Origin: a phage | Sequence record: PZ583739.1 | Direction: 5' to 3' (one strand) | DNA length: 64,000 nucleotides | Notes under the pieces: generated by a model | Databases searched by the model: none | Told to the model about the DNA's origin: nothing | The model's input: only the letters and a program-made list of their open reading frames with translations | Program-made: the position numbers and the translations under genes | Part shown: piece by piece, positions 16,435 to 61,832 of the stretch | Position numbering within the stretch: position 1 is the stretch's first letter | How the letters are laid out: the number at the start of each line of letters is the position of its first letter

Positions 16435-18210
<1,776 letters not shown>

Positions 18211-23218: not shown

Positions 23219-26200
23219 ATGGCCGATATTTTAAAACCAGCATTCAGAGCAACATCCGGTCTCGATGCTGCTGGTGAGAAAGTCATTAATGTCGCAAAAG
23301 CTGATTACTCAGTTTTATCAGACGGCGTTAACGTAGGTTTCTTTATAGAAGAAAACACAATTCAACAATATGATGCGACGCGCGGATACAAAAAGAACTT
23401 TGCGGTTATTAATGATAACCGTATTTGGGTTGCTCAACGTGATATTCCGGCACCAGCTGGAGCATTTACCCCTCAGTATTGGTTAGCAACTCGTACTGAC
23501 CCTAAATGGGAAACTGTTGCATCTCCAACTCGTCAGCTTAGCTCCGGGGAATTTATCGCAGTCGACTCAGCTGCAAGCTTTACCACATTTACATTGCCTC
23601 CGAACCCGACTGATGGTGATACCATCGTTATTAAAGATATCGGCGGTAATACCGGTTATAATGAAATTAAAGTTCAATCGAGCAATGTGCCTGGTCAAGG
23701 TAACCAAAAGATTGTTCGCTTTGGTAATCAGTATCCGGAAATTTTAATTACCAAACCATTCTCTTATAACATGCTTATCTTTTCAAACCGCTTATGGCAA
23801 TTTTGGGAAGCTGGCAACGAAGAACGTGGCATCAGAATAGAACCATCGACAGGTCGTTTCCATGCACAAGCTGGCGACTTTATTATGCGTCGTTATACAA
23901 CTGGTGCACCGATTACTTTCATTCTTCCTAAGTATGCAAACCAGGGTGATATTGTCAAATCTGTTGATATCGATGGCATGGGACCAACGTTCCACCTGAT
24001 GGTTGAAACCTTTGACACCAGTTCCAGTCTTGGGAAAGCTGGCCAGCATCAAATGGAATTCCGTACCACAGGTGATGGTTTCTTCGTTTATGATGCTGCC
24101 GAAAAACTCTGGCATGTTTGGGACGGTGATTTTAAAACTCGTCTTCGCGTTATTCGCGACAGCGTTAAACTTTTACCAAACGAAAGTGTCATTGTATTTG
24201 GCGAAGATAACTCAACTCCGGCAACGATTAATATCGATTTGCCAACTAATGTTTTGCAAGGCGATATTGTTAAGATTGCGCTGAACTATCTCCGTAAATC
24301 GCAGACTGTTAATATAAGAGCTGCTGTTGGCGATAAGATTGCAACTGACATTAAATTGCTGCAATTCCCTAAACGTTCCGAGTATCCACCAGATACAACT
24401 TGGGTGATGGTTGATTCATTGACCTTTAATGGCAACATCAGTTATACTCCGGTTATTGAATTATCATATGCAGAAGATGCAGTGTCTGGAACAAGTTATT
24501 GGGTTGTCGCTCAGAACGTCCCGACTGTCGAACGAGTTGACTCATTAAATGATTCCACGCGTACACGTCTTGGTGTTATTGCTCTGGCAAACCAGACTCA
24601 GGCAAACGTTGACCATGAAAATAACCCAGAAAAAGAACTCGCAATTACCCCTCAGACTTTAGCCAACCGTGTTGCTAAAGAGAACCAACGAGGCATTGCC
24701 AGAATCGCAACGACTGCTCAAGTAAATCAGAACAGTGATTTTGCATTTGTTGATGATGTAATTATTTCTCCGAAAAAACTCAATGAACGTACGGCAACAG
24801 AAACGAGACGCGGGCTCGCAGAACTCGCCACACAGCAAGAAACCGATGCGGGTGTAGATGATACCACAATTATAACTCCAAAGAAACTGCAAGCTCGCCA
24901 GGGCTCAGAATCGCTATCCGGTATTGTAACTTACGTTTCAACGACTGGTGCAACTCCTGCTGCTTCGCGTGAATTAAATGGTACAAACGTTTATAATAAA
25001 AATACGGTTAATCTGGTTGTTTCTCCGAAAGCTCTTGACCAGTACAAAGCTACTTACACCCAACAAGGTGCGGTTATTCTTGCGGTTGAAAGTGAAGTAA
25101 TTGCTGGTACTTCTCAATCTGGATGGGCAAACGCAGTCGTTACTCCAGAAATGTTGCATCGCAAAACTGCTCTTGATTCCCGTATCGGTTTAATCGAGAT
25201 TGCAACTCAAGTAGAAACAGATGCAGGAACCGATTATACCAGAGCTGTGACTCCTAAAACGTTAAATGACCGTAAAGCATCAGAAACGTTAACCGGCATA
25301 GCCGAGATTGCTACGCAATCAGAATTTGATACTGGAACTGATGATACTCGTATCTCAACTCCATTAAAAATTAAAAATAGATTTAATAATACTGCTCGTA
25401 CTTCTGTTAATGCATTAAGTGGTTTAGTAGAAACAGGGACGCTCTGGGACCATTATAGCCTGAATATTCTTGAAGCAAATGAGACTCAGCGTGGTACGGC
25501 AAGATTAGCAACTCAGGGTGAAGTCAATACCGGCACTGACGATAAAACAATCGTTACCCCGCTTAAATTGATGTCGAAAAAAGCCACTGAAAATGCCGAA
25601 GGTATTGTTCGCATCGCGACAAACGCAGAAGCAACAGCAGGTACATCAAAAGTCTTGGCCATCAGTCCGTCAGCGCTGAAATATATTGCACAAACGGAAA
25701 CAACCTGGGAAGCATCTGAAACCCTACGTGGATTTGTTCGTTTATCTTCTGGTACAGCTACTTCGGCCGCAACTACAACGACTGGTGCAGGATTTACATA
25801 TGCAAATGGCGTGTATACTCCGGACCCAAGTAAACTGGTTAGCTACGCAAAATCTGGATATGCAGTTTCACCTTACGAATTAAACCGCGTATTGCAAAAC
25901 TTCCTACCGATAAATGCGATGGCTGTTAATGCTGAAAAACTGGATAACCTTGATTCGACCCAGTTTATTCGTCGTGATATTGCTCAGACTGTTGAAGGTG
26001 TGTTAACTCTTACCAAACAGACAAATATATCTGCTCCGGTTGTATCGACGAGCACTGCAGTGTTTACTGATGTAACGGCTGGCACTTCGACGTTCGGAAC
26101 TGTGAACGTTGTTAACGGAACTAACAAGTGGAAAATCACCGCTCCTTCCACCGGAACGACAATGACTATTGGCGATACGACTAACGTATTGACATTAAAC

Positions 26201-27175
26201 ACCGCCTCGGGTAATGCTGCTGTACTGAACAACCTTAGCGCCGGAAATGATGTTCAAGCCAAAAATAATTACGTTCTAAATGGTCGTACTATCGCAACCA
26301 CAACGGGTGAAGCTTCTGGTGCAACTCTGGCTCTGGGTGATAACTCGCAGAATTTAGTGCTTAAAACTCTTGATGCTGGTAATATCATAGCAAATGGTGG
26401 CGGTGCATTTAAAGTCCTGACCGAGAAAAACGCTGTTGAGATTGTAGATAGAAACTTTGTTAACCAAGGCGGTGATACAATGTCTGGTGTGCTCCATGTG
26501 AATGCTCCGGTCCGTGTATTCGGTACGAAACCAAGTCTTATCGCACAAGCTCCGACTGCAGATACTGTTGGCTTCTGGTCTGTCGATATCAATGATGAAC
26601 CGACTTATAGTCAGTTCCCTGGTTATTGGACAATGAAGTTAAAACGTCAGGTAAACATTGATACAGTTCAAACTAAACCTGCTGGGGTAACTGATGAAGT
26701 TTGGAATGCTTCTGGTTGGTTAACTGAAAATGGAACTTTCGCCTCGCCTGTTATTCGTTATCGTAATGACGATGGTACACTCGGTGATGAAGTATTAGGT
26801 AGCTCTGGCCAAAAACTGCGCGGAACCTGGTTTGACTATTCGGTTCGTGATAAGGAAGTTAAATACCCTGGTACGTTAACTCAGTTTGGTAATACATTGG
26901 ATTCATGTTATCAGGATTGGGTGTGTTATCCAACTGGATTGAACGGTGGTACTATTCGTTATACTCGTACATGGCAGAAAAATAAATCTGCATGGACGAC
27001 TTTTGCAATGGTTTACACCGCGGATAACCCTCCGTCTGCAGAGGATGTTGGTGCATTACCGGCCGACAACACAACAATGGGGAACTTAACCATTCTCGAT
27101 TGGTTGCGTATCGGTAACGTGCGCATCATCCCAGACCCGACCACTAAATCCGTTAAGTTTGAATGGGTTGAATAA
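23219..27175 (+). CDS. 34: long tail fibre proximal subunit gp34
   Basis: 1318 aa; N-terminus and C-terminal ...GNLTILDWLRIGNVRIIPDPTTKSVKFEWVE match T4 gp34 as remembered. Confidence 0.92.
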   Translation: MADILKPAFRATSGLDAAGEKVINVAKADYSVLSDGVNVGFFIEENTIQQYDATRGYKKNFAVINDNRIWVAQRDIPAPAGAFTPQYWLATRTDPKWETVASPTRQLSSGEFIAVDSAASFTTFTLPPNPTDGDTIVIKDIGGNTGYNEIKVQSSNVPGQGNQKIVRFGNQYPEILITKPFSYNMLIFSNRLWQFWEAGNEERGIRIEPSTGRFHAQAGDFIMRRYTTGAPITFILPKYANQGDIVKSVDIDGMGPTFHLMVETFDTSSSLGKAGQHQMEFRTTGDGFFVYDAAEKLWHVWDGDFKTRLRVIRDSVKLLPNESVIVFGEDNSTPATINIDLPTNVLQGDIVKIALNYLRKSQTVNIRAAVGDKIATDIKLLQFPKRSEYPPDTTWVMVDSLTFNGNISYTPVIELSYAEDAVSGTSYWVVAQNVPTVERVDSLNDSTRTRLGVIALANQTQANVDHENNPEKELAITPQTLANRVAKENQRGIARIATTAQVNQNSDFAFVDDVIISPKKLNERTATETRRGLAELATQQETDAGVDDTTIITPKKLQARQGSESLSGIVTYVSTTGATPAASRELNGTNVYNKNTVNLVVSPKALDQYKATYTQQGAVILAVESEVIAGTSQSGWANAVVTPEMLHRKTALDSRIGLIEIATQVETDAGTDYTRAVTPKTLNDRKASETLTGIAEIATQSEFDTGTDDTRISTPLKIKNRFNNTARTSVNALSGLVETGTLWDHYSLNILEANETQRGTARLATQGEVNTGTDDKTIVTPLKLMSKKATENAEGIVRIATNAEATAGTSKVLAISPSALKYIAQTETTWEASETLRGFVRLSSGTATSAATTTTGAGFTYANGVYTPDPSKLVSYAKSGYAVSPYELNRVLQNFLPINAMAVNAEKLDNLDSTQFIRRDIAQTVEGVLTLTKQTNISAPVVSTSTAVFTDVTAGTSTFGTVNVVNGTNKWKITAPSTGTTMTIGDTTNVLTLNTASGNAAVLNNLSAGNDVQAKNNYVLNGRTIATTTGEASGATLALGDNSQNLVLKTLDAGNIIANGGGAFKVLTEKNAVEIVDRNFVNQGGDTMSGVLHVNAPVRVFGTKPSLIAQAPTADTVGFWSVDINDEPTYSQFPGYWTMKLKRQVNIDTVQTKPAGVTDEVWNASGWLTENGTFASPVIRYRNDDGTLGDEVLGSSGQKLRGTWFDYSVRDKEVKYPGTLTQFGNTLDSCYQDWVCYPTGLNGGTIRYTRTWQKNKSAWTTFAMVYTADNPPSAEDVGALPADNTTMGNLTILDWLRIGNVRIIPDPTTKSVKFEWVE

Positions 27176-27183
27176 GAGGTAAT

Positions 27184-28314
27184 ATGGAAAAATTTATGGC
27201 AGAGTTTGGACAAGGATACGTCCAAACGCCAGTTATATCAGAAAATAATGCCGTTAAATTTAAAATGAGTATAGCAGGGAGCTGTACTCTTTCCACGGTG
27301 AAATCGTATATCAAATTTCAGGATGAACAAATCGGACCAACTACTTTTGGCAATGGTTTGACTCTATTAGAAATTGATACAACTACGAATAAAATTGTTA
27401 ACACGAAAAACTATTCATTGACCAGCACACATGATGTAATCAGTCAGGCATTAATCACCTTTGTGGAATCTGTTCCAGCTGGAAGATTGATTGCTTTTAT
27501 TTCTTCTGGGAAACTAAATGCCTCGCAAACATTAATTGACTGGCTTCGTAAATGTGGCTCAAGAGCATTCCCCGAGAAATGGCTGATTGATAAAGTTGAT
27601 ACATCGTACTCGGCTTTTTACATAACCGGCCGGAACGTAATTGTTTCGGAGCATGTTAAGTATAATGACGGGAAGTTAGTTGAGGATGTTTCGACTCCGC
27701 TTGAAGTCGTTTATGATACCTTTAGTGATATAGGAGCAACAGGCTATCCTGTGCGCATAACGGAAGACGAGAGCACGTATTCATCAACAGGTGATGGAAC
27801 ATCAACCTCAATTAGAAGGTTCCCCACAGAGGACCTGGTGACTCCTATGAGCACATATAACCTTTTACCTTTGGATGTGCTTTACCTGAAGTTTCAGATG
27901 TCATTTGACGCTGAACTGAAAGCCGCCGGGACTGTAAGGACTTCGGTTCGATTCTTTAAAAGTCCTAGCACTTCTCCGATATCAAATACAAACATCGATA
28001 TTGCAGCAAACGTTCCAGCTGGTGCATGGGTAAGTTTCGAAAGATATGTTGAGATTCCAGCGGGAGCCGATGGCTTTACAGTAGTAACATCAAGGACTGT
28101 AGCTGTGGGAACTGGGTCAATACGTAATATTGTTATTGGTGAGATAACCAGAGGTGACTCGGCATTCAAACCAGCTGAATTTGGTGTCAACGGCATAAGG
28201 ATGTCATATGCAAACGATGCAACAAATACAGGCAATACAATTGTAACATTACCAGATGCACAAGCTCCGAGAGCCGGCAAGATATACGCAGCCGAACTAC
28301 GAGAAAAACAATAG
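27184..28314 (+). CDS. 35: long tail fibre hinge protein gp35
   Basis: 376-aa ORF immediately after 34, SD GAGG; position and size as T4 gp35. Confidence 0.8.
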   Translation: MEKFMAEFGQGYVQTPVISENNAVKFKMSIAGSCTLSTVKSYIKFQDEQIGPTTFGNGLTLLEIDTTTNKIVNTKNYSLTSTHDVISQALITFVESVPAGRLIAFISSGKLNASQTLIDWLRKCGSRAFPEKWLIDKVDTSYSAFYITGRNVIVSEHVKYNDGKLVEDVSTPLEVVYDTFSDIGATGYPVRITEDESTYSSTGDGTSTSIRRFPTEDLVTPMSTYNLLPLDVLYLKFQMSFDAELKAAGTVRTSVRFFKSPSTSPISNTNIDIAANVPAGAWVSFERYVEIPAGADGFTVVTSRTVAVGTGSIRNIVIGEITRGDSAFKPAEFGVNGIRMSYANDATNTGNTIVTLPDAQAPRAGKIYAAELREKQ

Positions 28315-28336
28315 GACTCTTCGGAGTCCTTTTTTC
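28314..28336 (+). terminator. rho-independent terminator after gene 35
   Basis: GGACTC-ttcg-GAGTCC followed by TTTTTT. Confidence 0.6.
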
Positions 28337-28338
28337 GT

Positions 28339-28346
28339 TATAAATA
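28339..28346 (+). promoter_or_regulatory. late promoter (TATAAATA) for gene 36
   Basis: exact TATAAATA directly after the terminator, about 35 nt before the gene 36 ATG. Confidence 0.6.
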
Positions 28347-28381
28347 CAAAATATCATATGCCGGTTGAAGAGGACTTATAA

Positions 28382-29029
28382 ATGGCAGATTTAAAACTAG
28401 GCTCAACAGCCGGAGGTTCGGTCCTCTGGCACCAGGGTAATTTCCCATTAACACCAGTCAGTAATGACTTATATTTCAAAACTTATAAAATTTATTCCGA
28501 ATATAACAAGCCACAAGCAGTCGATAACGATTTCGTTTCTAAAGCTCTTGGTGGTAATTATAAAGCAAACGTATATTTTGAACAAGGCCTGACATTTAAT
28601 GATTCAAATGGTTACGGGATTAAGTTGGGGGCGAGAACGGGCGGTGCACCATTTACAGCATCTTTCCGTATTAAAGGGCCGTTTGGATTTGAGACTGAAA
28701 CGGGAACACCATTCGTTATTTTTGACCCTGACACTACGACAGGAGCAAAACGTCTTACTGTTATGGGTGATACGTTAGCTCGACAGATTTATGATGAAAC
28801 AGGACGTGTATTTTCTCCAGGGAATACTCCGTCAAAAGCTCAAGTTGGTCTTAGTAATGTAACTAACCAGCAACAGGTGGAACTAAATAATAGTACATTG
28901 CAAACAATGACAGGTAACTTGTCAGCACCTAATTTCTTCTCTAGGAACCCAGCATCAGACCCGGCTCACGTGCCCCGTTTTGACCAAATCGTTCTTAAAG
29001 ACTCCGTACAAGATTTTGGATATTATTAA
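28382..29029 (+). CDS. 36: long tail fibre distal connector gp36
   Basis: 215-aa ORF between 35 and 37; MADLKLGSTAGGSVLWHQGNFPL... Confidence 0.8.
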   Translation: MADLKLGSTAGGSVLWHQGNFPLTPVSNDLYFKTYKIYSEYNKPQAVDNDFVSKALGGNYKANVYFEQGLTFNDSNGYGIKLGARTGGAPFTASFRIKGPFGFETETGTPFVIFDPDTTTGAKRLTVMGDTLARQIYDETGRVFSPGNTPSKAQVGLSNVTNQQQVELNNSTLQTMTGNLSAPNFFSRNPASDPAHVPRFDQIVLKDSVQDFGYY

Positions 29030-29037
29030 GAGGCATT

Positions 29038-32000
29038 ATGGCTACTTTAAAACAAATACAATTTAAAAGAAGTAAGGTTGCCGGCGTTCGCCCGGCGCCA
29101 ACAGTTCTTGCCGAAGGTGAACTGGCTATCAACTTGAAAGACCGCTTACTTTTTACTAAAGATGACACCGGCGCCATCATTGACCTTGGCTTTGCTAAAG
29201 GCGGTAATATTGATGGTAACGTTATTCATAACGGTAACTACACCCAAACCGGTGCCTATACTATAGCCGGAGCTATTTCACAAACGTCTGGACATTTTAC
29301 TACTACTGGTAATATAATAGCAACCGGTGATGTCACAGCAAAAGCCCGTTTAATGACAGATAATGGTGAAGTTCTTGTACGAGGTACAGGAACCACTCAT
29401 GTTCGATTCCAGGATTTGGCTGATGCTCGAGAAAGAGGTATAATTTATTCTCAAAACCGTACTGGGGATACCAAGCAAATCTTGAACGTTCGTGTTCAGG
29501 ATTACACTAATTCAACATCTAATATTTTTGCATTCAACGGCGATGGTTTATTTTATGCTCCGTCTATTTCCAGCGGAACATCGGTGAAATCTCCAGTAAT
29601 TTATACTAATACCGTTGATACTGGTAATAAATCAGCTCTTGATTATGATATATCTTCATTAGCAAATAATAATCCTGCAAGTTCAAGCGCAACAGCTATT
29701 AACTATCTTAGAATAAGTAGACACGCTGTCGATGGAATTAGGTATCGTGAACTTAATAATGTAAATGGTATTTCATGGCATTCTATTTCTACAGCCGGAA
29801 CAGCTAAGTATCTTTGGTCATTTAATGCAGATGGCGATGTCAAAACATCAAATTCTCTTTCCGTTGGCCTACCTGGGGATAGCTCAGGATACTCAACATT
29901 AGGTCCGTCTGCTATCGCACTTGGTGACAATAACACAGGTTTGAAATGGAAACAAGACGGTCAGTTCCATACAATTAATAATGGAGCTTATACTTTACTT
30001 ACATCTCCAACTGAAGTTACAAGCCTTAAACAGTTAGTTGCGGGTTATTCAACCAACGGTTCTGATTTAATTCTTCCTACAACTCAAAACTATCCATTAG
30101 TTATTGTTAATACTACTAATGATAAAAACGGCTTCGGCGACGGTCAAACTCTTTTAGGTTACCACCAAAGCGGCAAATATCACCATTATTTTCGTGGCAA
30201 AGGTGTAACAAACGTTAACACCGATGGTGGGTTGTTGGTTACTCCTGGCAACGTTGAAGTCCGTGGTGGTTCGGTTAATATTGATGGTCTCAGTAATGCT
30301 TCGACAGTGCTTTTTAAAGGAAATACAACAGGAAGTAGTTCAGTTGATAATATAGAGCTCAAAGTTTGGGGTGACACTTTTAATACAGTAGATGGTTCTC
30401 GTAAAAACGTAGTGGAAATATCCGATGCTACTAGCTGGATGCACTATATTCAACGAACTACAGCAGGTAAAGTCGAATCCTATTTAAATGGTACCATGAA
30501 TGTAATTGAAGGATTGTCTGTCAATCAAGATACATCCTTAAAACGCAATCTGTATGTTTCCAATGAAATTAAAGTTCGCGCGGCGAGTGGTCTTCGTATT
30601 TGGAACGATAAGTACGGTGTTATTTTTCGAAATTCAGAAGACCAGCTGCATATTATCCCAACCAATGTTAATGCCGGCGAAAGTGGCGGATTAGGTCCAT
30701 TACGCCCATTAAGTATTATGTTAGACACGGGTCTGGTTAAAATCCCTAACTTAGAAGCAGACCAGGTTTCTTTTAAGGGTAGCGGCGTATTAGAATTCCC
30801 TAATAGTAGCGGCGCATCTTATGCCAACCAGAACACGACTAAAGCTCCGTTGTATCAAGCACTTGATGCTGCGACTCAAGCATTTTATCCTATTACTAAG
30901 CAGAAAAATATCGATTCGAATGTAACTGTTACGCAAGGTATGGACCGAGCTACGAGCGAATACCGAATTGTTGCCCAAGGTGATTTGCTTGGCGATGGCG
31001 TTACAACCGGATTAAAATACTGGCGCTTTACCAAAGAAGGTAACTTCATGGCCCAGAACCGCTTATATGCCGGTACAGCTTATATGAATACCGATGGTAA
31101 TATTGCAGGTTCTATTTGGAAAAAGTATAGCGGTGCTACTAACCTTGACGCAGCGGTGAATACTCGTGTAGGTAAAGGCGGCGATACAATGACAGGTAAA
31201 TTGGTCATTGATGCTCCAGGCGATCCTTTAGTATTAAAAACAACCGCAGGTAATAGCTCGCATATCCGTTCTGATGTAAATGGTACCGGCAACTGGTATG
31301 TTGGTAAAGGTGGCGATGATAACGGAATAGCTCTTTACAGTTATGCTACCAACTCGGGTATGTACATCACTAATGATGGGGCTTTCAACGTAGAACTTTC
31401 TGGTGCTGGCTTAGCAATGCAGATGAATTATTATCGCATGTATGTTAATGGCCGAGCATGGGTTAATACACAAGGTCATGGTTACGGAAACCAATGGCAA
31501 ACAGAAGCTCCTTATTTCGTCGACTTTGGTGAATCTGTTCCTAAAGATAGCTATATGCCAATTATCAAAGGAAAAAGCACTCTAATTACCGACGGATATT
31601 CTACTAAAGCAGACTTTGGTATTATTCGATTAGGTGGAGCTGCTACTTGGGGTTCTGCTGTTATTCGTGTGGGTTCTGCCGAAAGCGGCGATGCAAGCCA
31701 TCCTAATGCAATATTTGTATTTCAGGCCAATGGTGATTTTGTTGCACCTGCCGGTTTACGAGCCAGAGCTAACCTAGGCGTGGGCACAATCCCGGTATGG
31801 GGCGGCGCATCCATTGCCATTGGGGACGATGACACCGGCTTAGTCCATGGTGGTGACGGTCGAATTAATATGTATGCTAACTCGCAACATATTGCAAGCT
31901 GGGGAGCCGGTTATCAGATTCATGAAGGTCTTTGGGATACCCATGGGGCTTTGTGGACTGAAACAGGAAAAGCTATTATTTCTTATGGGCATTTAGTCCA

Positions 32001-32382
32001 ACAAAGTGATGCCTATTCTACATATGTCCGTGATGTGTATGTCCGTTCTGATATTCGTGTTAAAAAAGACCTTGTTAAATTTGAAAATGCTTCTCGGAAG
32101 CTTTCTAAAATTAACGGCTACACATATATGCAGAAACGTGGAACTGACGAAGAAGGTAATCAGAAATGGGAACCTAATGCTGGTTTAATTGCTCAAGAAG
32201 TTCAAGCTATTTTACCTGAATTGGTTGAAGGCGACCCTGATGGTGAAGCTTTACTTCGTTTGAACTATAACGGTGTAATTGGTTTAAATACAGCTGCAAT
32301 CAATGAGCACACTGCAGAAATAGCAGAATTGAAATCAGAGATTGAAGAACTTAAAGCTTTAGTTAAATCATTGTTAAAATAA
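29038..32382 (+). CDS. 37: long tail fibre distal subunit gp37 with C-terminal chaperone-like module
   Basis: 1114 aa; [43 protein letters not shown]... matches gp37 N-terminus; C-terminal SDIRVKKDL...GYTYMQK... then heptad-like [22 protein letters not shown]. Confidence 0.88.
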
Positions 32383-32387
32383 TAAGA

Positions 32388-32401
32388 GGGGCTTCGGCCC
32401 C
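32388..32401 (+). other. intergenic GC hairpin between genes 37 and 38
   Basis: GGGGC-ttcg-GCCCC directly before the gene 38 SD; no strong T-run, so probably not a full terminator. Confidence 0.35.
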
Positions 32402-32413
32402 TTGGAGGTTTAT

Positions 32414-33196
32414 ATGGCAGTAGTAGGACCGTGGGTAGGGTGGTCTGCGAGGGTACAAACTGGGGACCCTTGGATGGGCGGCGCTGCCCAACGATTGAGA
32501 ATGGGTATTCCGTTTTGGATGAGTAATATGGTAGGTCGGTCTGTTGAAATAATTCACACACTTGGAGCCGACCATAACTTTAACGGGCAATGGTTTAGAG
32601 ACCGTTGTTTTGAAGCCGGTGCTGCCCCTATTGTGTTTAATATCACAGGTGATTTAGTATCTTATACTAAAGATGTTCCGTTGTTCTTTATGTATGGCGA
32701 TACCCCTAATGAATACGTTACTTTGAATATTCACGGCGGGGTCCATATGTGGGGCCGTGGTGGTAACGGTGGGACCCGTGTTTGGGTAGCGGGTACAAAT
32801 GGTGGTGATGTAATTCAAAACGACATTGGTGGCAGACTCCGTATCTGGAACTATGGCGTTATAGCTTCAGGGGGCGGCGGCGGTGCCGGATGTGCTTCAA
32901 ATAACTCTTGGCTTGTGGCGGGTACAGCTGGTGGCGGTGGCGGTAGACCATATGGATTAGGTGGTACTAATGGCGCCGTAAACCCAGGCGGCAACGCTAG
33001 TTATACCGGACCAGGTGGCGGTGGTAGCTTTGGTGGACAGTGGGGTGGTGGTAATGGCGGCGACGCGGGTGGGGCTGGTGGCGGCGCTTACGGACGAAGC
33101 GTTACATACGGCTCACAAGGCGGAGCTGGACGAGCTGTATTCGGAAGTTCTCCTTCATGGGGCGCTACAGGCACTATCTACGGCTCCTGGCTATAG
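32414..33196 (+). CDS. 38: T2-type receptor-binding adhesin gp38 (glycine-rich motifs)
   Basis: ATG 32414 after SD GGAGG (track start 32402 is TTG); [11 protein letters not shown]...; C-terminal half has poly-Gly motifs separated by variable segments. Confidence 0.85.
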
Positions 33197-33207
33197 TACA
33201 TAAGCGC

Positions 33208-33215
33208 TATAAATA
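33208..33215 (+). promoter_or_regulatory. late promoter (TATAAATA) for holin gene t
   Basis: exact TATAAATA about 20 nt upstream of the t ATG. Confidence 0.55.
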
Positions 33216-33233
33216 TCTTTAAAGGAGAAAAGT

Positions 33234-33887
33234 ATGGAACCAAAAGTAGGAATATCAATACCCGACCTACTTTTTGGACTTCTTGATAGAATTTTTAAAG
33301 ATAATGCGACCGGGAAAGTTGTTTTTTCCCGGGTACTAGTTATTGTTCTATTATTTTTAATGGCGGTAATCTGGTATAAAGGTGATGCACTTTTAGATGC
33401 GTACAGGGATGCTTCATATGCCTCATACACAGAAATGATAAGGCAAGACCAGGACAACAGATTTAAAATTGCAGCTATCGAGCAAATCCAGATAGTCCAC
33501 TCGTCAAGTGGGGCAGACTTTACAGCAATATATTCTTTTAGACCAACTAACCTTAACTACTTTGTGGATATGGTGGGATACGAGGGGATATTGCCTGATA
33601 CAGTCGACGAAAAAAATTTAGGTGGGTTTCCAATAGATAAAACTTCGGCGGAATATTTGGCGGGGGTTAATGGTAATTATTTTGAATCCAGTACGGAATC
33701 TGTATTCTTACCAACAAAGAAAAAAAGCAGCTTCTCATATATGTTCAGCTGCCCATTCTTTAATTTGGAAAACGTTTATGCAGGTACAGTCTCACTGTAC
33801 TGGTATAAGCAAAAACCTAACCTTGGTTTTGATAGGCTTTCTGCTATGTGTGGACAAGCAGGTCGTACGCTTGGGCGTACACGTTAG
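33234..33887 (+). CDS. t: holin
   Basis: 217 aa; ...DLLFGLLDRIFKDNATGKV..., ...LNYFVDMVGYEG..., C-terminal ...MCGQAGRTLGRT match T4 holin T as remembered. Confidence 0.9.
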   Translation: MEPKVGISIPDLLFGLLDRIFKDNATGKVVFSRVLVIVLLFLMAVIWYKGDALLDAYRDASYASYTEMIRQDQDNRFKIAAIEQIQIVHSSSGADFTAIYSFRPTNLNYFVDMVGYEGILPDTVDEKNLGGFPIDKTSAEYLAGVNGNYFESSTESVFLPTKKKSSFSYMFSCPFFNLENVYAGTVSLYWYKQKPNLGFDRLSAMCGQAGRTLGRTR

Positions 33888-58362: not shown

Positions 58363-58644
58363 TTACAATTTGATGGCTTGAACTGCTTTATTGGCTTCAG
58401 TCATTTTAGCTAGATTTTCAGCAGTAGGATTCGCCATCCATTCTGCTGTTGCATTAGCAAAAGCATTATGAGTTTCAATTACATTTTTAGCATTTTCAGT
58501 ATTCGTATCAATTTCATGTTTAGATAAATGTTTTAGTTGATTAGATAAGAGTTCTACGAAGATTTCGGTATTAACATTTTCAATTATATCGTTAATATAT
58601 TTCTTGCGAGCTTTCTTAAGCTGACGTTTATTTAATCGAGCCAT
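58363..58644 (-). CDS. hypothetical protein
   Basis: 93-aa ORF between 56 and soc. Confidence 0.45.
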   Translation of the reverse strand: MARLNKRQLKKARKKYINDIIENVNTEIFVELLSNQLKHLSKHEIDTNTENAKNVIETHNAFANATAEWMANPTAENLAKMTEANKAVQAIKL

Positions 58645-59162
58645 TAATAACCTCGGTCTTGACGAGCAAAGTTTTCGGCATTTTTCAGATAATACAATTT
58701 AAAGATTTCTTCTGCAGTCAGTCCAAGACCGTGGAACATGTTCAGGACAAAGTGCAGGATATCAATCATCTCAAATTTAATTTCGAGCTGGTCTTCAGGA
58801 GATAAATCATTAATCAGGGTTTGCTGCATTTCGCCATGTTGTGCTTTCCATGGTTTCCATACGGCCGAGGCAGCTTTCTCGCCATTGGACATGCCACCTA
58901 ATGCAGTAATCAGTTCACGGAATTCATCATCAATATAATCTTTCTGGTTGCGGAGCCAGGTAACAACTTCACCAGCAGTCGCCAGGTTATCAGGATGTTC
59001 GTTATATTCTGGTTTTTCTTTAGCCAGACGAACCTGCAATGATTTCTGCATATCAAGCATAACTTGCAGTGGGTCAGTGCCTTCAAAAATTGCATTATCA
59101 TAAGCGCCCTGAGCTTTATCAACACCAGCAATCAGTTGAGAACATTCATTAAAATGAGCCAT
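58644..59162 (-). CDS. 56: dCTP pyrophosphatase (dCTPase) gp56
   Basis: 172 aa from ATG 59162 (SD AAGGAAAAATATA): MAHFNECSQLIAGVDKAQ...; C-terminal ...EEIFKLYYLKNAENFARQDRGY matches T4 gp56. Confidence 0.9.
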   Translation of the reverse strand: MAHFNECSQLIAGVDKAQGAYDNAIFEGTDPLQVMLDMQKSLQVRLAKEKPEYNEHPDNLATAGEVVTWLRNQKDYIDDEFRELITALGGMSNGEKAASAVWKPWKAQHGEMQQTLINDLSPEDQLEIKFEMIDILHFVLNMFHGLGLTAEEIFKLYYLKNAENFARQDRGY

Positions 59163-59246
59163 TATATTTTTCCTTATCAATTCATGTTGTTTGTATGTTA
59201 ATTATATCGTATTGGTTTAAAGCATAAATACAAGAAAGGGGGATGT

Positions 59247-59444
59247 ATGCTAAAACTATCTAGTCTAATTCAAGCCATCAAAGGCAGTCGTAAGCGAACG
59301 ATTCTGGTCCTTTCGGTACTCTGTTTAGTTCTACTCTGGAACTTCATTGTTGCTCCAGTTGCAATGGCACATGGTGTTATATTACCAGTCGTCGCGCTCG
59401 AATCAGTTGTAGATGTTTCACTGGCATTAATCGGCCTTATATAG
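59247..59444 (+). CDS. small membrane/secreted protein, tandem paralog A
   Basis: 65 aa, strong SD AAAGGGGGAT; hydrophobic core LLWNFIVAPVAMAHGVILPVV. Confidence 0.4.
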   Translation: MLKLSSLIQAIKGSRKRTILVLSVLCLVLLWNFIVAPVAMAHGVILPVVALESVVDVSLALIGLI

Positions 59445-59452
59445 GTGGAACT

Positions 59453-59659
59453 ATGGGAACATTATTCTATCAGATTTGGAAATTAACCAGTAAGAAAGAC
59501 AAGAAGCTCATCATGGGCTTTTTAGCTCTTGATGTTTTCCTGTGGAACTTACTGGTTGTGCCTATCGCTGCAACACAAGGGGTACACTTACCCCAGGTCA
59601 CAATGGAACATATCCATTCCATCATCGGTTACTTTACCGGAATCCCTTCCTCGTCTTGA
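59453..59659 (+). CDS. small membrane/secreted protein, tandem paralog B
   Basis: 68 aa, SD AGGTGGA; FLWNLLVVPIAATQGVHLPQV parallels paralog A; 3' end converges on the HNH gene. Confidence 0.4.
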   Translation: MGTLFYQIWKLTSKKDKKLIMGFLALDVFLWNLLVVPIAATQGVHLPQVTMEHIHSIIGYFTGIPSSS

Positions 59660-60396
59660 TACTTCCAAAAATGGCCGTTTGACCTATACATTCGGCCTGT
59701 CTTTTTATTTCTTTTACAAGCTGTGTATATATTTTGAGTATTGCCCGCCAATTGTAATAATTCCTTTGCCTCAGCTCCCGAATTATACTTTTCAAGTATA
59801 TTACCAAATTCATCGCATCTACAAACCGGTGTTCCAGTTGCCTTTCGGCATGCTTCTCGCCGCAACTTTTTCGTTTCTTCGGTTTGCGGATTTTCTTTAA
59901 ATCTTCTCATTTGTGCATCGCGATTCTTTTGCCGTTGTTCATCAGTAACTGGATTATTTTGATAATACAATTTTAATGAGTTAGCTATTTTACTTTTGGT
60001 TTTATCAGACACAGGGTGGTCGTTATGTCGCTTGTGTAAAGCAATTAACATTTTGTCTTTAAACTCGGATTGACTCCATAAGTTTGACATATGTTCACTA
60101 ACGGCTTTACTATGTTCTTTTCGCATCCATTCATATTTTGCGCTATCAAATTTGTCACCGCACATCCGGTGTATAGCAAACATTAATTTAGAAAGTCGAT
60201 AAATTTTAAAAAGTAACAAATGTGCAATAAAATGTTCTCTTGCTGATAACAATACCAAATTATCTTCGGTGTCAGGTCCACCCAAACACCTTGGTAGTAT
60301 ATGATGGGACTCCGTATAAAATGGGATATTCTTTTTGTTTAGGCCCCTTGCGAGGCCTTTGTCTATTAATTTATTATATAATTTTAGATAATTCAT
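59629..60396 (-). CDS. free-standing HNH homing endonuclease (mob-like mobile element)
   Basis: 255 aa; HNH core ESHHILPRCLGGPDTEDNLVLLSAREHFIAH; basic C-terminal region; ATG overlaps the gene 61 TGA stop (ATGA). Confidence 0.8.
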   Translation of the reverse strand: MNYLKLYNKLIDKGLARGLNKKNIPFYTESHHILPRCLGGPDTEDNLVLLSAREHFIAHLLLFKIYRLSKLMFAIHRMCGDKFDSAKYEWMRKEHSKAVSEHMSNLWSQSEFKDKMLIALHKRHNDHPVSDKTKSKIANSLKLYYQNNPVTDEQRQKNRDAQMRRFKENPQTEETKKLRREACRKATGTPVCRCDEFGNILEKYNSGAEAKELLQLAGNTQNIYTACKRNKKTGRMYRSNGHFWKYQDEEGIPVK

Positions 60397-61421
60397 ATTT
60401 TTGCATATTTGGATAATCGAAGTTTTGCCATTAAACCTTGTGCAATATTATCATTCATATAGGCTTCAATTTGCTCAGGCGTTGCTCCTTCCGATTTAAT
60501 CATTTCATTTATATCTTTCGTATGCCACGGTGCGTTGTCCCAGAACATAACAGCTTCTCCTGCATCGACTAATTTCTTCATACGTTTAATCGTATCAGGA
60601 TGTCTTGCTTCTGAATCCATCACCCATACTCTGGTTTCTGGGTAAGGAACAGCTTCCAATGCTAATGTTCCACCGGTTATCGCAATGCTGTTAGGGATAA
60701 ACAAACTATCAATTGGACCTTCCATTACCCATACGCGTTTACGCTCATCAATCTTGTCTACGCCATAGACTTTGGAAGCTTCTGGGTGAGCTTTGATTGT
60801 GATATATTTTTGTGGTGCATCTTTGCGAAGAGCTCGTCCTTGGAAAGATTCGATTTCTTTTTTGCCGTTGAAGATAGGAATAACCAAGCGTGGTTCATTC
60901 GTTTCATTCTTATACGTCCCAGGATTAACGGAGTTAACTAATGCAGGCCATTTGTTTGTAAACCATAACCGGTTCCAAACATTGCTCGGAATACACCGAC
61001 TTTTTACATACTTAATTATCGGATGTGCTTCTGGTAAAGTATCGAGTCTTTCACAAAAAGCAAGCTGCTCAATAACCGGAGTTTTTTCTGGTTCTTTCGG
61101 AGCTTCTGCAACTTCAGTGCGTTGTCGCCCAAATGCATTCTCCTTATACTTCTCAACCATATATTCCCGGTGTAAATCCGGCTCAAACTCTTTTATGTAT
61201 TTGCTTATATGCGTGGAGTAGTCACAGTTAAAACATTTCACGTAAACCGCGCCATCAGTCGGATTAGTATACGCCCAGAATCGAGCCTTGTGTGAATCTT
61301 TCTGGGAGTCCCCACAAACCTTGCAACGACAGTTTGCTTTAAATGTGCTCCCGGTGACTTCTCTATAACGTGGTTGATACGATAAAGCTCTGACTGCAAA
61401 TTCTTTATCAATATATGACAT
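60393..61421 (-). CDS. 61: DNA primase gp61
   Basis: 342 aa; zinc motif ...CKVCGDSQKD...C.NCDY...; ...VMEGPIDSLFIPNSIAITGG...; C-terminal IAQGLMAKLRLSKYAKI match T4 gp61 as remembered. Confidence 0.92.
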   Translation of the reverse strand: MSYIDKEFAVRALSYQPRYREVTGSTFKANCRCKVCGDSQKDSHKARFWAYTNPTDGAVYVKCFNCDYSTHISKYIKEFEPDLHREYMVEKYKENAFGRQRTEVAEAPKEPEKTPVIEQLAFCERLDTLPEAHPIIKYVKSRCIPSNVWNRLWFTNKWPALVNSVNPGTYKNETNEPRLVIPIFNGKKEIESFQGRALRKDAPQKYITIKAHPEASKVYGVDKIDERKRVWVMEGPIDSLFIPNSIAITGGTLALEAVPYPETRVWVMDSEARHPDTIKRMKKLVDAGEAVMFWDNAPWHTKDINEMIKSEGATPEQIEAYMNDNIAQGLMAKLRLSKYAKI

Positions 61422-61453: not shown

Positions 61454-61621
61454 TTATACTGTAGGTTTATCGTCTTTGTTCTTACGCTTTTTTGATGGGA
61501 TTTGTTCAGGGCCTTTATTGACAACTGCCCCGGAAGTGGTACCTGTTGCGATATTAGTTGGGTTTCCACCCGCATCACCGGCAACCATATTTTCGTTGAT
61601 AAAATCTTTGAATGTTTTCAT
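61454..61621 (-). CDS. small protein (55 aa), not in ORF track
   Basis: ATG 61621, TAA 61454; MKTFKDFINENMVAGDAGGNPTNIATGTTSGAVVNKGPEQIPSKKRKNKDDKPTV. Confidence 0.3.
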   Translation of the reverse strand: MKTFKDFINENMVAGDAGGNPTNIATGTTSGAVVNKGPEQIPSKKRKNKDDKPTV

Positions 61622-61640
61622 AACACCCCCTTTCCGCTAT

Positions 61641-61832
61641 TTATACAACGAAGATAGCTTTATCACCATTTGCATCAGTCACTTCATAAGTGTCTTCATG
61701 ATACAACGGAATAATCCAGGTAACACCATCATCAGCGATAACATGGATTGCTTCTTGGTCTTGCGATACGATTTCATATTCTTCAAAAATCTGGAAGACA
61801 GAAATCTTAGAGCCCGTACACATTGCACTCAT
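61641..61832 (-). CDS. hypothetical protein
   Basis: 63-aa ORF. Confidence 0.4.
   Translation of the reverse strand: MSAMCTGSKISVFQIFEEYEIVSQDQEAIHVIADDGVTWIIPLYHEDTYEVTDANGDKAIFVV

Follow-up and report, generated by a model that had tools for sequence, protein, structure and literature searches.

Bacteriophage T4 serves as the reference for lysis timing and lysis inhibition, yet its genome contains a 310-bp annotation gap between dam and gene 61. T4 infections that are null for the holin gene t neither lyse nor stop metabolizing, and phage production continues in them. A different type of holin, with three transmembrane segments (3TM), is represented by Pfam family PF11351 (GTA_holin_3TM), the name of which comes from the RcGTA lysis genes; according to PMC3423380, the lysozyme and holin proposed by Hynes et al. 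are rcc00555 and rcc00556, respectively. The present analysis concerns sequence record PZ583739.1, a 64-kb stretch (64,000 nucleotides [nt]) of phage DNA referred to below as the window, and within it two adjacent small plus-strand open reading frames (ORFs), ORF1 and ORF2, which lie between gene 56 and a homing endonuclease gene (Table 1). The nearest relatives of the window are the T-even Gaprivervirus phages vB_EcoM_RZ, DK-13, and VR20 (91 to 98% DNA identity).

ORF1 and ORF2 were found to be genuine members of a protein family, PHROG 2024, that is widespread at this place in T-even phages and remotely similar to 3TM holins. The reading that we favor, with confidence that is about evenly balanced, is that their products are late, miniaturized hairpins of the holin family, which modulate what happens in the membrane at lysis and are not autonomous holins. 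We infer the topology and the holin homology from sequence and structure models, and the late transcription and lysis-related role are likewise inferred.

ORF1 and ORF2 are paralogous genes under purifying selection

The original prediction described tandem, related, small hydrophobic proteins, and the relationship was borne out. ORF1 and ORF2 matched each other by BLASTP (E = 3e-10; 43% identity across the core), and both matched the phrog_2024 hidden Markov model (HMM) over essentially their full lengths, ORF1 at residues 1 to 65 of 65 (E = 2.5e-26) and ORF2 at positions 1 to 64 of 65 (E = 6.7e-28). Codon comparisons with orthologs gave ratios of nonsynonymous to synonymous change (dN/dS) of 0.07 to 0.18 within genera and of 0.2 to 0.47 for the ORF1 type between Gaprivervirus and Tequatrovirus. 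Among ORF2-type orthologs, synonymous sites were saturated in comparisons between genera, with a proportion of synonymous differences (pS) of 0.8 to 0.96 and a proportion of nonsynonymous differences (pN) of 0.15 to 0.2. Because the ortholog comparison showed clear purifying selection, ORF1 and ORF2 are genuine genes and not chance ORFs.

No DNA-level repeat was detected between ORF1 and ORF2, implying that their duplication is old. ORF1 was 52 to 54% identical to an unannotated 66-amino-acid (aa) ORF of T4, and ORF2 was 73 to 77% identical to the single copy present in JS98-like and Klebsiella phages. Since each copy resembles the single copy of another genus more than it resembles its own neighbor, the pair is, by these comparisons, an old divergence that was brought or kept together. 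A recent tandem duplication was ruled out on the same two grounds, the missing DNA repeat and the closeness of each copy to another genus's single copy.

Every Gaprivervirus examined had an intact ORF1-type copy. In VR20 and RZ, the ORF2-type copy has become a pseudogene; in both, the second codon is TGA and a deletion is present, of 2 nt in VR20 (contig L002, ~2345-2537) and of 26 nt in RZ (contig L001, ~2310-2481; window equivalent of both sites, 59453-59659). This decay beside an intact ORF1-type copy suggests partial redundancy of the paralogs. ORF2 also contains an imperfect 21-nt inverted repeat (59485-59505/59537-59557; 76% complementary, with a 31-nt gap), which spans the RZ deletion.

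PHROG 2024 occupies the same place across T-even phages

A tblastn census of the family, in which E values up to a permissive 10 were allowed, gave matches in 924 phage records, and in 703 of them one place covered at least 80% of ORF1. The matches included T4, T2, T6, RB14, and JS98, as well as T-even phages of Klebsiella, Salmonella, Yersinia, and Enterobacter, and all 32 of the 32 diverse relatives compared with PHROG profiles matched phrog_2024. Three subtypes substituted for one another from genus to genus: type A (ORF1-like) occurred in Tequatrovirus (T4, T2, T6, and RB14) and Gaprivervirus, with a variant of it in Mosigvirus; type B (ORF2-like) occurred in JS98-like phages and many Klebsiella phages; and type C occurred in Jiaodavirus and Gelderlandvirus. 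The tandem arrangement of A and B was essentially specific to Gaprivervirus, and two places were found in 31 of 705 records.

The family gene invariably lay on the strand opposite genes 56 and 61, usually with a 4-nt overlap with the stop codon of 61. This layout, between 56 (or dam) and 61, was common to Gaprivervirus, Tequatrovirus, Dhakavirus, Mosigvirus, Jiaodavirus, and Gelderlandvirus, and a metagenomic T4-like contig likewise carried a PHROG 2024 gene between 56/dam and 61 on the opposite strand. The window proteins resemble the other members in length, position, and opposite-strand orientation; they are full members of the family, and no difference from it was found.

In T4, the gene is the 66-aa ORF mentioned above (NC_000866, 17738-17938, plus strand; contig L004, 3239-3439), which has the Shine-Dalgarno sequence (SD) AAGGAGG, lies in the seemingly empty 310 bp from dam to 61, and shares 4 nt with the stop codon of 61. 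In both T4 reference records, NC_000866 and AF158101, this gap is bare of annotation; full-text literature searches for an ORF, a transcript, or a small protein of T4 at this place returned nothing relevant; and a T4 RNA sequencing (RNA-seq) paper and a posttranscriptional review were silent on the region. Other members are annotated as "hypothetical protein," for example, RB32ORF030w, VR7ORF033w, and VR25 gp031/gp032. PHROG 2024 is therefore already catalogued, as hypothetical in many genomes and with no assigned function; as far as the full-text searches show, the T4 annotation gap, the conserved late-type promoter arrangement placed back to back with the middle promoter of gene 56, and the kinship to 3TM holins are undescribed.

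Both proteins are predicted to form a membrane hairpin

AlphaFold2 placed helices at residues 2 to 11, 15 to 41, and 51 to 61 of ORF1 (predicted local distance difference test [pLDDT], 81) and at residues 3 to 11, 14 to 41, and 51 to 62 of ORF2 (pLDDT, 66). In the models, both proteins have a short N-terminal helix, a long transmembrane (TM) helix, and a short hydrophobic C-terminal helix. The best 19-residue segment of ORF1 had a mean Kyte-Doolittle hydropathy of 2.6. Since the N-flank of the TM helix carries a charge of +5 and the C-flank a charge of −1 to −2 (−2 in ORF1), with positive charge on the N-flank only, an orientation with the N terminus inside is predicted. Across all family forms, W31 and N32 were nearly invariant and P37 was invariant, and all three residues lie inside the long helix. 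Also conserved were a G...LP turn, an acidic residue, and the short terminal hydrophobic helix. Structure searches gave no match in the PDB, and in BFVD they matched family members only, one of which was automatically named "Holin"; one UniProt entry for a family member bears the same name, with no visible support.

The hydrophobic segments are followed by A-x-A-like sites (PVAMA-HG in ORF1 and PIAAT-QG in ORF2), to which the original prediction drew attention, and the proteins might alternatively be Sec-exported prepeptides, in which the N-terminal 41 to 42 residues would be cleaved after A-x-A/T and a hydrophobic, acidic periplasmic peptide of ~24 aa would be freed. The basic N-terminal region, the conservation of the C-terminal part, and the Pro residue located 4 to 5 residues before the small-x-small site are all compatible with a signal peptide. 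However, the hydrophobic stretch is 19 to 23 residues long and is modeled as a single 27-residue helix, whereas the criterion used for a Sec h-region was ~7 to 15 residues with small residues at −3/−1. In addition, the best-conserved family residues (W-N...P) lie in this stretch, which is atypical of signal peptides, and the stretch belongs to a region that aligns with the uncleaved TM2-loop-TM3 part of holins (see below). The sites are real in this phage, but residues −3/−1 vary among homologs (L..T, A..F, and A..N). Because the A-x-A sites are not conserved across the family and lie inside its most conserved part, a cleaved signal peptide in ORF1 or ORF2 is unlikely from the alignments, and the release of a periplasmic peptide was judged quite improbable. 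A lipoprotein was ruled out as well, as there is no lipobox and Cys is not conserved.

The family shows remote similarity to 3TM holins

The window proteins themselves had no Pfam match (none to PF11351 at E ≤ 1) and none in NCBIfam. When the 32 diverse members were compared with Pfam, PF11351 was the only family matched repeatedly (6 of 32 members; best E, 8.5e-4); its gathering threshold of 24.8 bits was not reached by ORF1 or ORF2, and one relative (P0121) scored 17.3 bits. Beyond phrog_2024, the recurrent annotated PHROG matches were phrog_3427 and phrog_11161, both labeled "holin" and each matched by 4 members; phrog_3427 represents the PF11351 type of holin. For a 97-aa prophage form of the family, 92% of the length could be aligned with the Paracoccus phage ParKuw1 holin. 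The ParKuw1 holin gene adjoins the endolysin gene of that phage, and its product scores 72 bits against PF11351 and 110 bits against phrog_3427. Prophage homologs of 96 aa bridge PHROG 2024 and the PF11351/phrog_3427 families.

Profiles were compared by hhalign with 34 distinct PF11351-type holins collected from viral contigs. The whole family scored 32.3 (P = 2e-5; probability, 76%), and the T-even members alone scored 26.1 (P = 3e-4; probability, 40%), with the TM2-loop-TM3 part of the holins aligned. When the columns in the hydrophobic half of the holin profile were shuffled 100 times, the mean score was 10.5 (standard deviation, 2.2; maximum, 17), and the reversed profile scored 9 to 11. 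Since shuffled and reversed profiles scored far lower, the similarity depends on residue order and not just on hydrophobic composition. These comparisons suggest that PHROG 2024 is a truncated derivative of the 3TM holin family and not a Pfam-level member of it; the third hydrophobic segment of these holins is not present in full.

A late-type promoter motif is conserved upstream of the family gene

The element that precedes ORF1, which the original prediction placed close to the late promoter consensus, matches it with a single deviation, at −13 (Table 1). The motif NATAAATA was found 16 to 22 nt 5' of the first ATG in 9 of 11 distinct upstream contexts, in which the upstream DNA was otherwise unrelated, consisting of 56, dam, homing endonuclease, or other genes. 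The variants were GATAAATA in T4 (17709-17716), AATAAATA in the T6, JS98, Mosigvirus, and Jiaodavirus types, the perfect TATAAATA in a Klebsiella-phage group, and CATAAATA, as in the window, in a metagenomic T4-like contig (L036). In the remaining 2 of the 11 contexts (metagenomic T4-like contig L023, ~2440-2467; Gelderlandvirus CF-SP2, contig L102, ~1195-1221), NATAAATA is replaced by TATTAAATA, 14 to 19 nt 5' of the start codon, which may be a tolerated late-promoter variant.

Both strands of the window together contain only 10 NATAAATA sites. Six of the eight perfect TATAAATA sites stand 16 to 39 nt before an SD and a start codon, and sites of this kind precede soc, the holin gene t (18 nt before its start codon; element and gene, 33208-33887), and the homolog of gene 61.1; the motif also precedes a tail-fiber gene. 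A review of T4 late transcription covers 50 sites, of which 32 are perfect and nine differ by an A at −13, with single deviations in the rest; −13 variants are common among accepted T4 late promoters (PMC2988020). The conservation of a late-type motif at a fixed upstream distance, together with its rarity in the window, makes gp55-dependent late transcription of ORF1 and ORF2 likely. Of the earlier suggestion that the products are late-expressed membrane or secreted peptides, the late membrane-protein part is largely borne out, late expression being very probable in view of the conserved NATAAATA, and secretion is doubtful. The 61.1 homolog, nominally a gene of the early block, also looks late transcribed, since the spacing of its perfect TATAAATA is 16 nt, as in ORF1, and its AAAGGGGG SD is likewise that of ORF1.

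Back to back with the late motif, and overlapping it by 2 nt, is a minus-strand pattern that we take, from its match to the T4 middle-promoter consensus, to be the MotA-type middle promoter of gene 56. The pattern is kept in relatives (as TGCTTCA in VR25 and VR26), and the fPS-2 record has a "predicted middle promoter" annotated at the equivalent spot. The T4 oriA region and the gene 56 transcript as its primer have been described (PMC3016281). Because the T4 record annotates oriA as primed by the transcript of gene 56, the intergenic region between 56 and ORF1 may combine middle, late, and origin functions.

A search for plus-strand sigma-70 promoters gave at best 9 of 12 matches, which is the chance frequency. 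No significant fold indicative of a terminator was found after ORF2 (z = −1.0), and two terminator-like matches inside ORF2 were at chance level. By sequence, a late transcript would probably run antisense into the HNH endonuclease gene and 61. Conceivably, the RNA or its transcription is itself the product and the ORFs are incidental, with a role in antisense shutoff of the 61/HNH mRNAs or in replication priming by an R-loop near the equivalent of oriA. Such a role would accord with a late transcript that is convergent with 61/HNH and has no convincing terminator 3' of ORF2, with the adjacency of the oriA region in T4 and the proposal that late-promoter R-loops act as cryptic origins (PMC3016281), and with the transcription of several T4 sites on both strands (PMC2988020). 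However, the protein sequence is under strong purifying selection with saturated synonymous change, the SDs and the ORF length are kept in all lineages, and there is no Rfam match. A purely RNA-based role is accordingly regarded as very improbable, and an antisense side effect could coexist with coding.

Longer homologs lie at the ends of prophage late operons

Exhaustive profile searching yielded no more than 16 cluster representatives at E ≤ 1e-3, and word-seeded searches with these added chromosomal forms of 67 to 70 aa and of 91 to 100 aa. The chromosomal homologs occurred in E. coli, Klebsiella, Enterobacter, Raoultella, Cronobacter, and Serratia, and two clusters of 96-aa homologs stand for ~900 contigs each. 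The elements that carry them are prophages of temperate siphophages, in which the homolog follows the tail-tip gene and closes, or nearly closes, the late operon. Two of the architectures place it 3 to 4 genes from a T4-type lysozyme gene and a gene for a TM-plus-coiled-coil (DUF2730-like) protein.

The TM-plus-coiled-coil companions are 81 to 94 aa long and had weak DUF2730 and spanin/holin-like matches. Further companions of the prophage homologs are a protein of 179 to 202 aa and a protein of ~105 aa (contigs L026, 5779-8213; L032, 4894-7291; and L034, 7260-9082). No family matches were obtained for the 179- to 196-aa and 105-aa companions; a relationship was seen between the 179- and 196-aa proteins, and the two ~105-aa proteins match only marginally. 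GIY-YIG or Endonuclease VII-like genes lie among the companion genes, as does, in some cases, a reverse-strand T4-type lysozyme gene. A RelA_SpoT-domain gene lies directly 3' of the 97-aa homolog in a Raoultella contig (L029, 7311-7811; 166 aa) and in a metagenomic contig (L031, 991-2049; 352 aa). From its sequence, this gene looks like a CapRel-type fused toxin-antitoxin defense gene, and because it follows the homolog, the prophage end beside the homolog appears to be a defense-gene hotspot.

This setting bears on a host-directed or exclusion function, in which late membrane microproteins without any role in lysis would bind a host inner-membrane protein or keep the DNA of superinfecting phage from entering, like Imm, Cor-like factors, and other small membrane proteins of phages. 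The terminal position of the prophage homolog beside the hotspot, with the CapRel-like gene next to it in L029 and L031, would suit such a function, as would the restriction of the short family to phages and prophages of Enterobacterales and the interchange of subtypes A, B, and C between genera. The near-invariant polar W-N pair within the TM helix, in turn, suggests a specific helix-helix partner. However, the exclusion proteins of T4 are early, whereas the family gene has a late-type promoter, and the only recurrent remote similarity of the family is to holins. An exclusion function was therefore considered unlikely, if still deserving of some weight.

Arrangement of the locus and insertion of the HNH endonuclease gene

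The coordinates originally given for the two adjacent ORFs and the presence of an SD before each were correct (Table 1). Because the gap between them is only 8 nt, ORF1 and ORF2 are taken to form one operon. The relatives have AGGAGG at the position equivalent to the ORF1 SD, and the ORF2 SD is kept in VR25 and VR26. As predicted, plus-strand genes are otherwise found in the tail-fiber block: plus-strand ORFs of at least 150 aa in the window are essentially restricted to the tail-fiber/holin block at 23219-33887. The stretch had also been described as having no minus-strand ORF, which holds for ORFs of at least 30 aa within ORF1-ORF2 with the exception of a single 51-aa antisense ORF. The start of gene 56 was taken as the ATG at 59162; in the ORF list, the frame runs on to a TTG at 59180.

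Table 1. Features of the PHROG 2024 locus and related elements in the window
Feature	Position	Strand	Description
Canonical holin T	33234-33887		Follows tail-fiber genes; 217 aa; PF11031, 224 bits
Gene 56 (dCTPase)	58644-59162	-	Left neighbor, divergent from ORF1; named from relatives' annotation; Pfam dUTPase_2
Putative middle promoter of gene 56	59224-59201	-	TGCTTTA (59224-59218), 11-nt spacer, TATAAT (59206-59201)
Late-promoter-like element CATAAATA	59223-59230	+	16 nt 5' of ORF1 ATG; T4 consensus TATAAATA; C at −13
ORF1 SD	59236-59242	+	AAGGGGG; 4 nt 5' of ORF1 ATG
ORF1	59247-59444	+	65 aa; PHROG 2024 type A, T4-like subtype
Coding part for predicted ORF1 TM helix	59298-59366	+	Residues 18-40; carries W31-N32...P37
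ORF2 SD	59443-59449	+	AGGTGGA; overlaps ORF1 stop; 3 nt 5' of ORF2 ATG
ORF2	59453-59659	+	68 aa; PHROG 2024 type B, JS98/Klebsiella-phage subtype
Antisense ORF	59470-59625	-	51 aa
Free-standing HNH homing endonuclease	59629-60396	-	phrog_655, E = 6e-45; Pfam HNH weak
Gene 61 (primase)	60393-61421	-	Right of HNH endonuclease
gp61.1 homolog	61454-61621	-	55 aa
TATAAATA of 61.1 homolog	61638-61645	-	Perfect consensus

ORF1 and ORF2 converge on the HNH endonuclease gene, as originally described. The ATG of the HNH gene overlaps the stop codon of gene 61, and its 3' end overlaps ORF2 by 31 nt. The adjacency and overlap of ORF2 and the HNH gene had led to the suggestion that the ORFs are cargo that arrived with the HNH element; in a related form of this idea, a type I toxin-like selfish module moved in with it, and a marginal Ldr_toxin match (E = 0.1) was obtained in one family member. 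The distribution of the HNH gene tells otherwise. RZ, DK-13, and P8 have this gene, and VR20, VR25, and VR26 do not; both ORFs are present in VR25 and VR26, and VR20 also keeps them, the B copy as a pseudogene. T4, T6, JS98, MM02, PKO111, and others carry the gene or genes at the same place without an HNH gene, and in relatives of this kind the stop codon of gene 61 overlaps that of the small ORF by 4 nt. Because relatives that lack the HNH gene keep the ORFs, the cargo reading was refuted, and its probability is practically nil. Furthermore, the boundary of the HNH gene falls after the ORF2 coding sequence, and the alignment puts its insertion point precisely between the gene 61 stop codon and that of ORF2. 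The insertion altered the C terminus of ORF2 from ...GIPS to ...GIPSSS, with the last residues, SSS, and the 31-nt overlap stemming from it. The HNH endonuclease gene is thus outside the ORF1/ORF2 unit.

Proposed role at lysis

Because the canonical holin T is present and t-null infections do not lyse, ORF1 and ORF2 cannot be autonomous holins or spontaneous depolarizers at natural levels. A lysis-tuning role appears the likeliest for them, since the late promoter, the holin-like hairpin, the polar W-N face, and the association with late or lysis genes in some prophages fit together. In the proposed mechanism, gp55-RNA polymerase would start late at the CATAAATA element, and both ORFs would be translated from their strong SDs, with translation of ORF2 coupled to that of ORF1. 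Each protein would insert with its basic N terminus in the cytoplasm. The TM helix, of 23 to 27 residues, would bear the nearly invariant W-N...P; a short G-x-x-L-P turn would lie at the periplasmic face; and the short hydrophobic C-terminal helix would dip back into the membrane. This hairpin would be homologous to TM2-loop-TM3 of the 3TM GTA-type holins, with the N-terminal third and the charged tail lost. The proteins would accumulate late in the membrane, associate with themselves or with another membrane protein by way of the polar W-N face, and then tune membrane permeabilization and the timing of lysis by the T holin.

Several points weigh against a role of this kind. Neither window ORF alone matches any holin model, and the link to holins consists of profile comparisons of short hydrophobic segments, with a probability of 40% for the T-even members only. 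The charged C-terminal tail typical of holins is absent, no endolysin gene adjoins the family gene in T-even phages, and a third prophage architecture has no lysozyme gene nearby. The canonical T holin is present in the same window, and we know of no rapid-lysis locus mapped between 56 and 61. The ORF2-type copy, at least, is dispensable, given its decay in VR20 and RZ. With regard to expression, the ORF1 promoter departs from the consensus at −13, CATAAATA in this window coincides with the complement of a MotA box, and the full-text literature on T4 yielded no transcript or protein data on this region.

The favored hairpin reading can be extended to the claim that an overlooked late gene of the T-even phages, T4 included, is a working part of the lysis clock by way of a miniaturized holin-family hairpin; this further claim is doubtful, with the chances clearly against it. 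If true, the hairpin would set the membrane state for T triggering or would aid lysis inhibition and its collapse. It would then be a new component in one of the best-studied lysis systems and a two-helix remnant of a 3TM holin re-used as a regulator.

At the place where T4 has its annotation gap, a gene under selection and apparently with a late promoter is kept by nearly all enterobacterial T-even phages, and the annotations of T4 and its relatives should gain the PHROG 2024 gene. The holin link supplies a testable hypothesis for a gene that is labeled hypothetical in hundreds of genomes, with a possible extra player in T triggering, and would add a further case of holin reduction, here to a two-helix microprotein. 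In addition, engineering of the 56-61 region, which is near oriA and is a frequent insertion site for homing endonucleases, should allow for this gene.

Comparison with known systems

Microprotein regulators of the MgrB and AcrZ type are similar in size to the window proteins and have a single TM helix in which a conserved polar residue suggests helix-helix recognition. They have no homology to the window proteins, and the comparison is offered as an analogy only. T4 holin T and antiholin RI are late inner-membrane proteins with a single N-terminal TM anchor, as is proposed for the window proteins. In contrast, they share no sequence similarity with the window proteins and act through sizeable periplasmic domains, whereas the window proteins have almost none, and no genetic link of the window proteins to lysis is known.

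The PF11351 holins differ from the window proteins in several respects. The window proteins are about half their size, have two rather than three hydrophobic segments, and are without the N-terminal hydrophobic and amphipathic third and the charged C-terminal tail; their one long TM helix and a C-terminal helix of 11 to 12 residues are followed only by GLI or GIPSSS. Moreover, the window ORFs are not adjacent to an endolysin gene, their neighbors being 56, the HNH gene, and 61, and they coexist with the unrelated holin T. However, the PF11351/phrog_3427 holins and the window proteins have the same order of motifs, in which basic residues or W-R before the helix are followed by aromatic-x-F/Y...P inside it and then by a G...LP turn, after which come an acidic residue and a hydrophobic helix with a terminal G, and both families appear to be expressed with late or structural genes.

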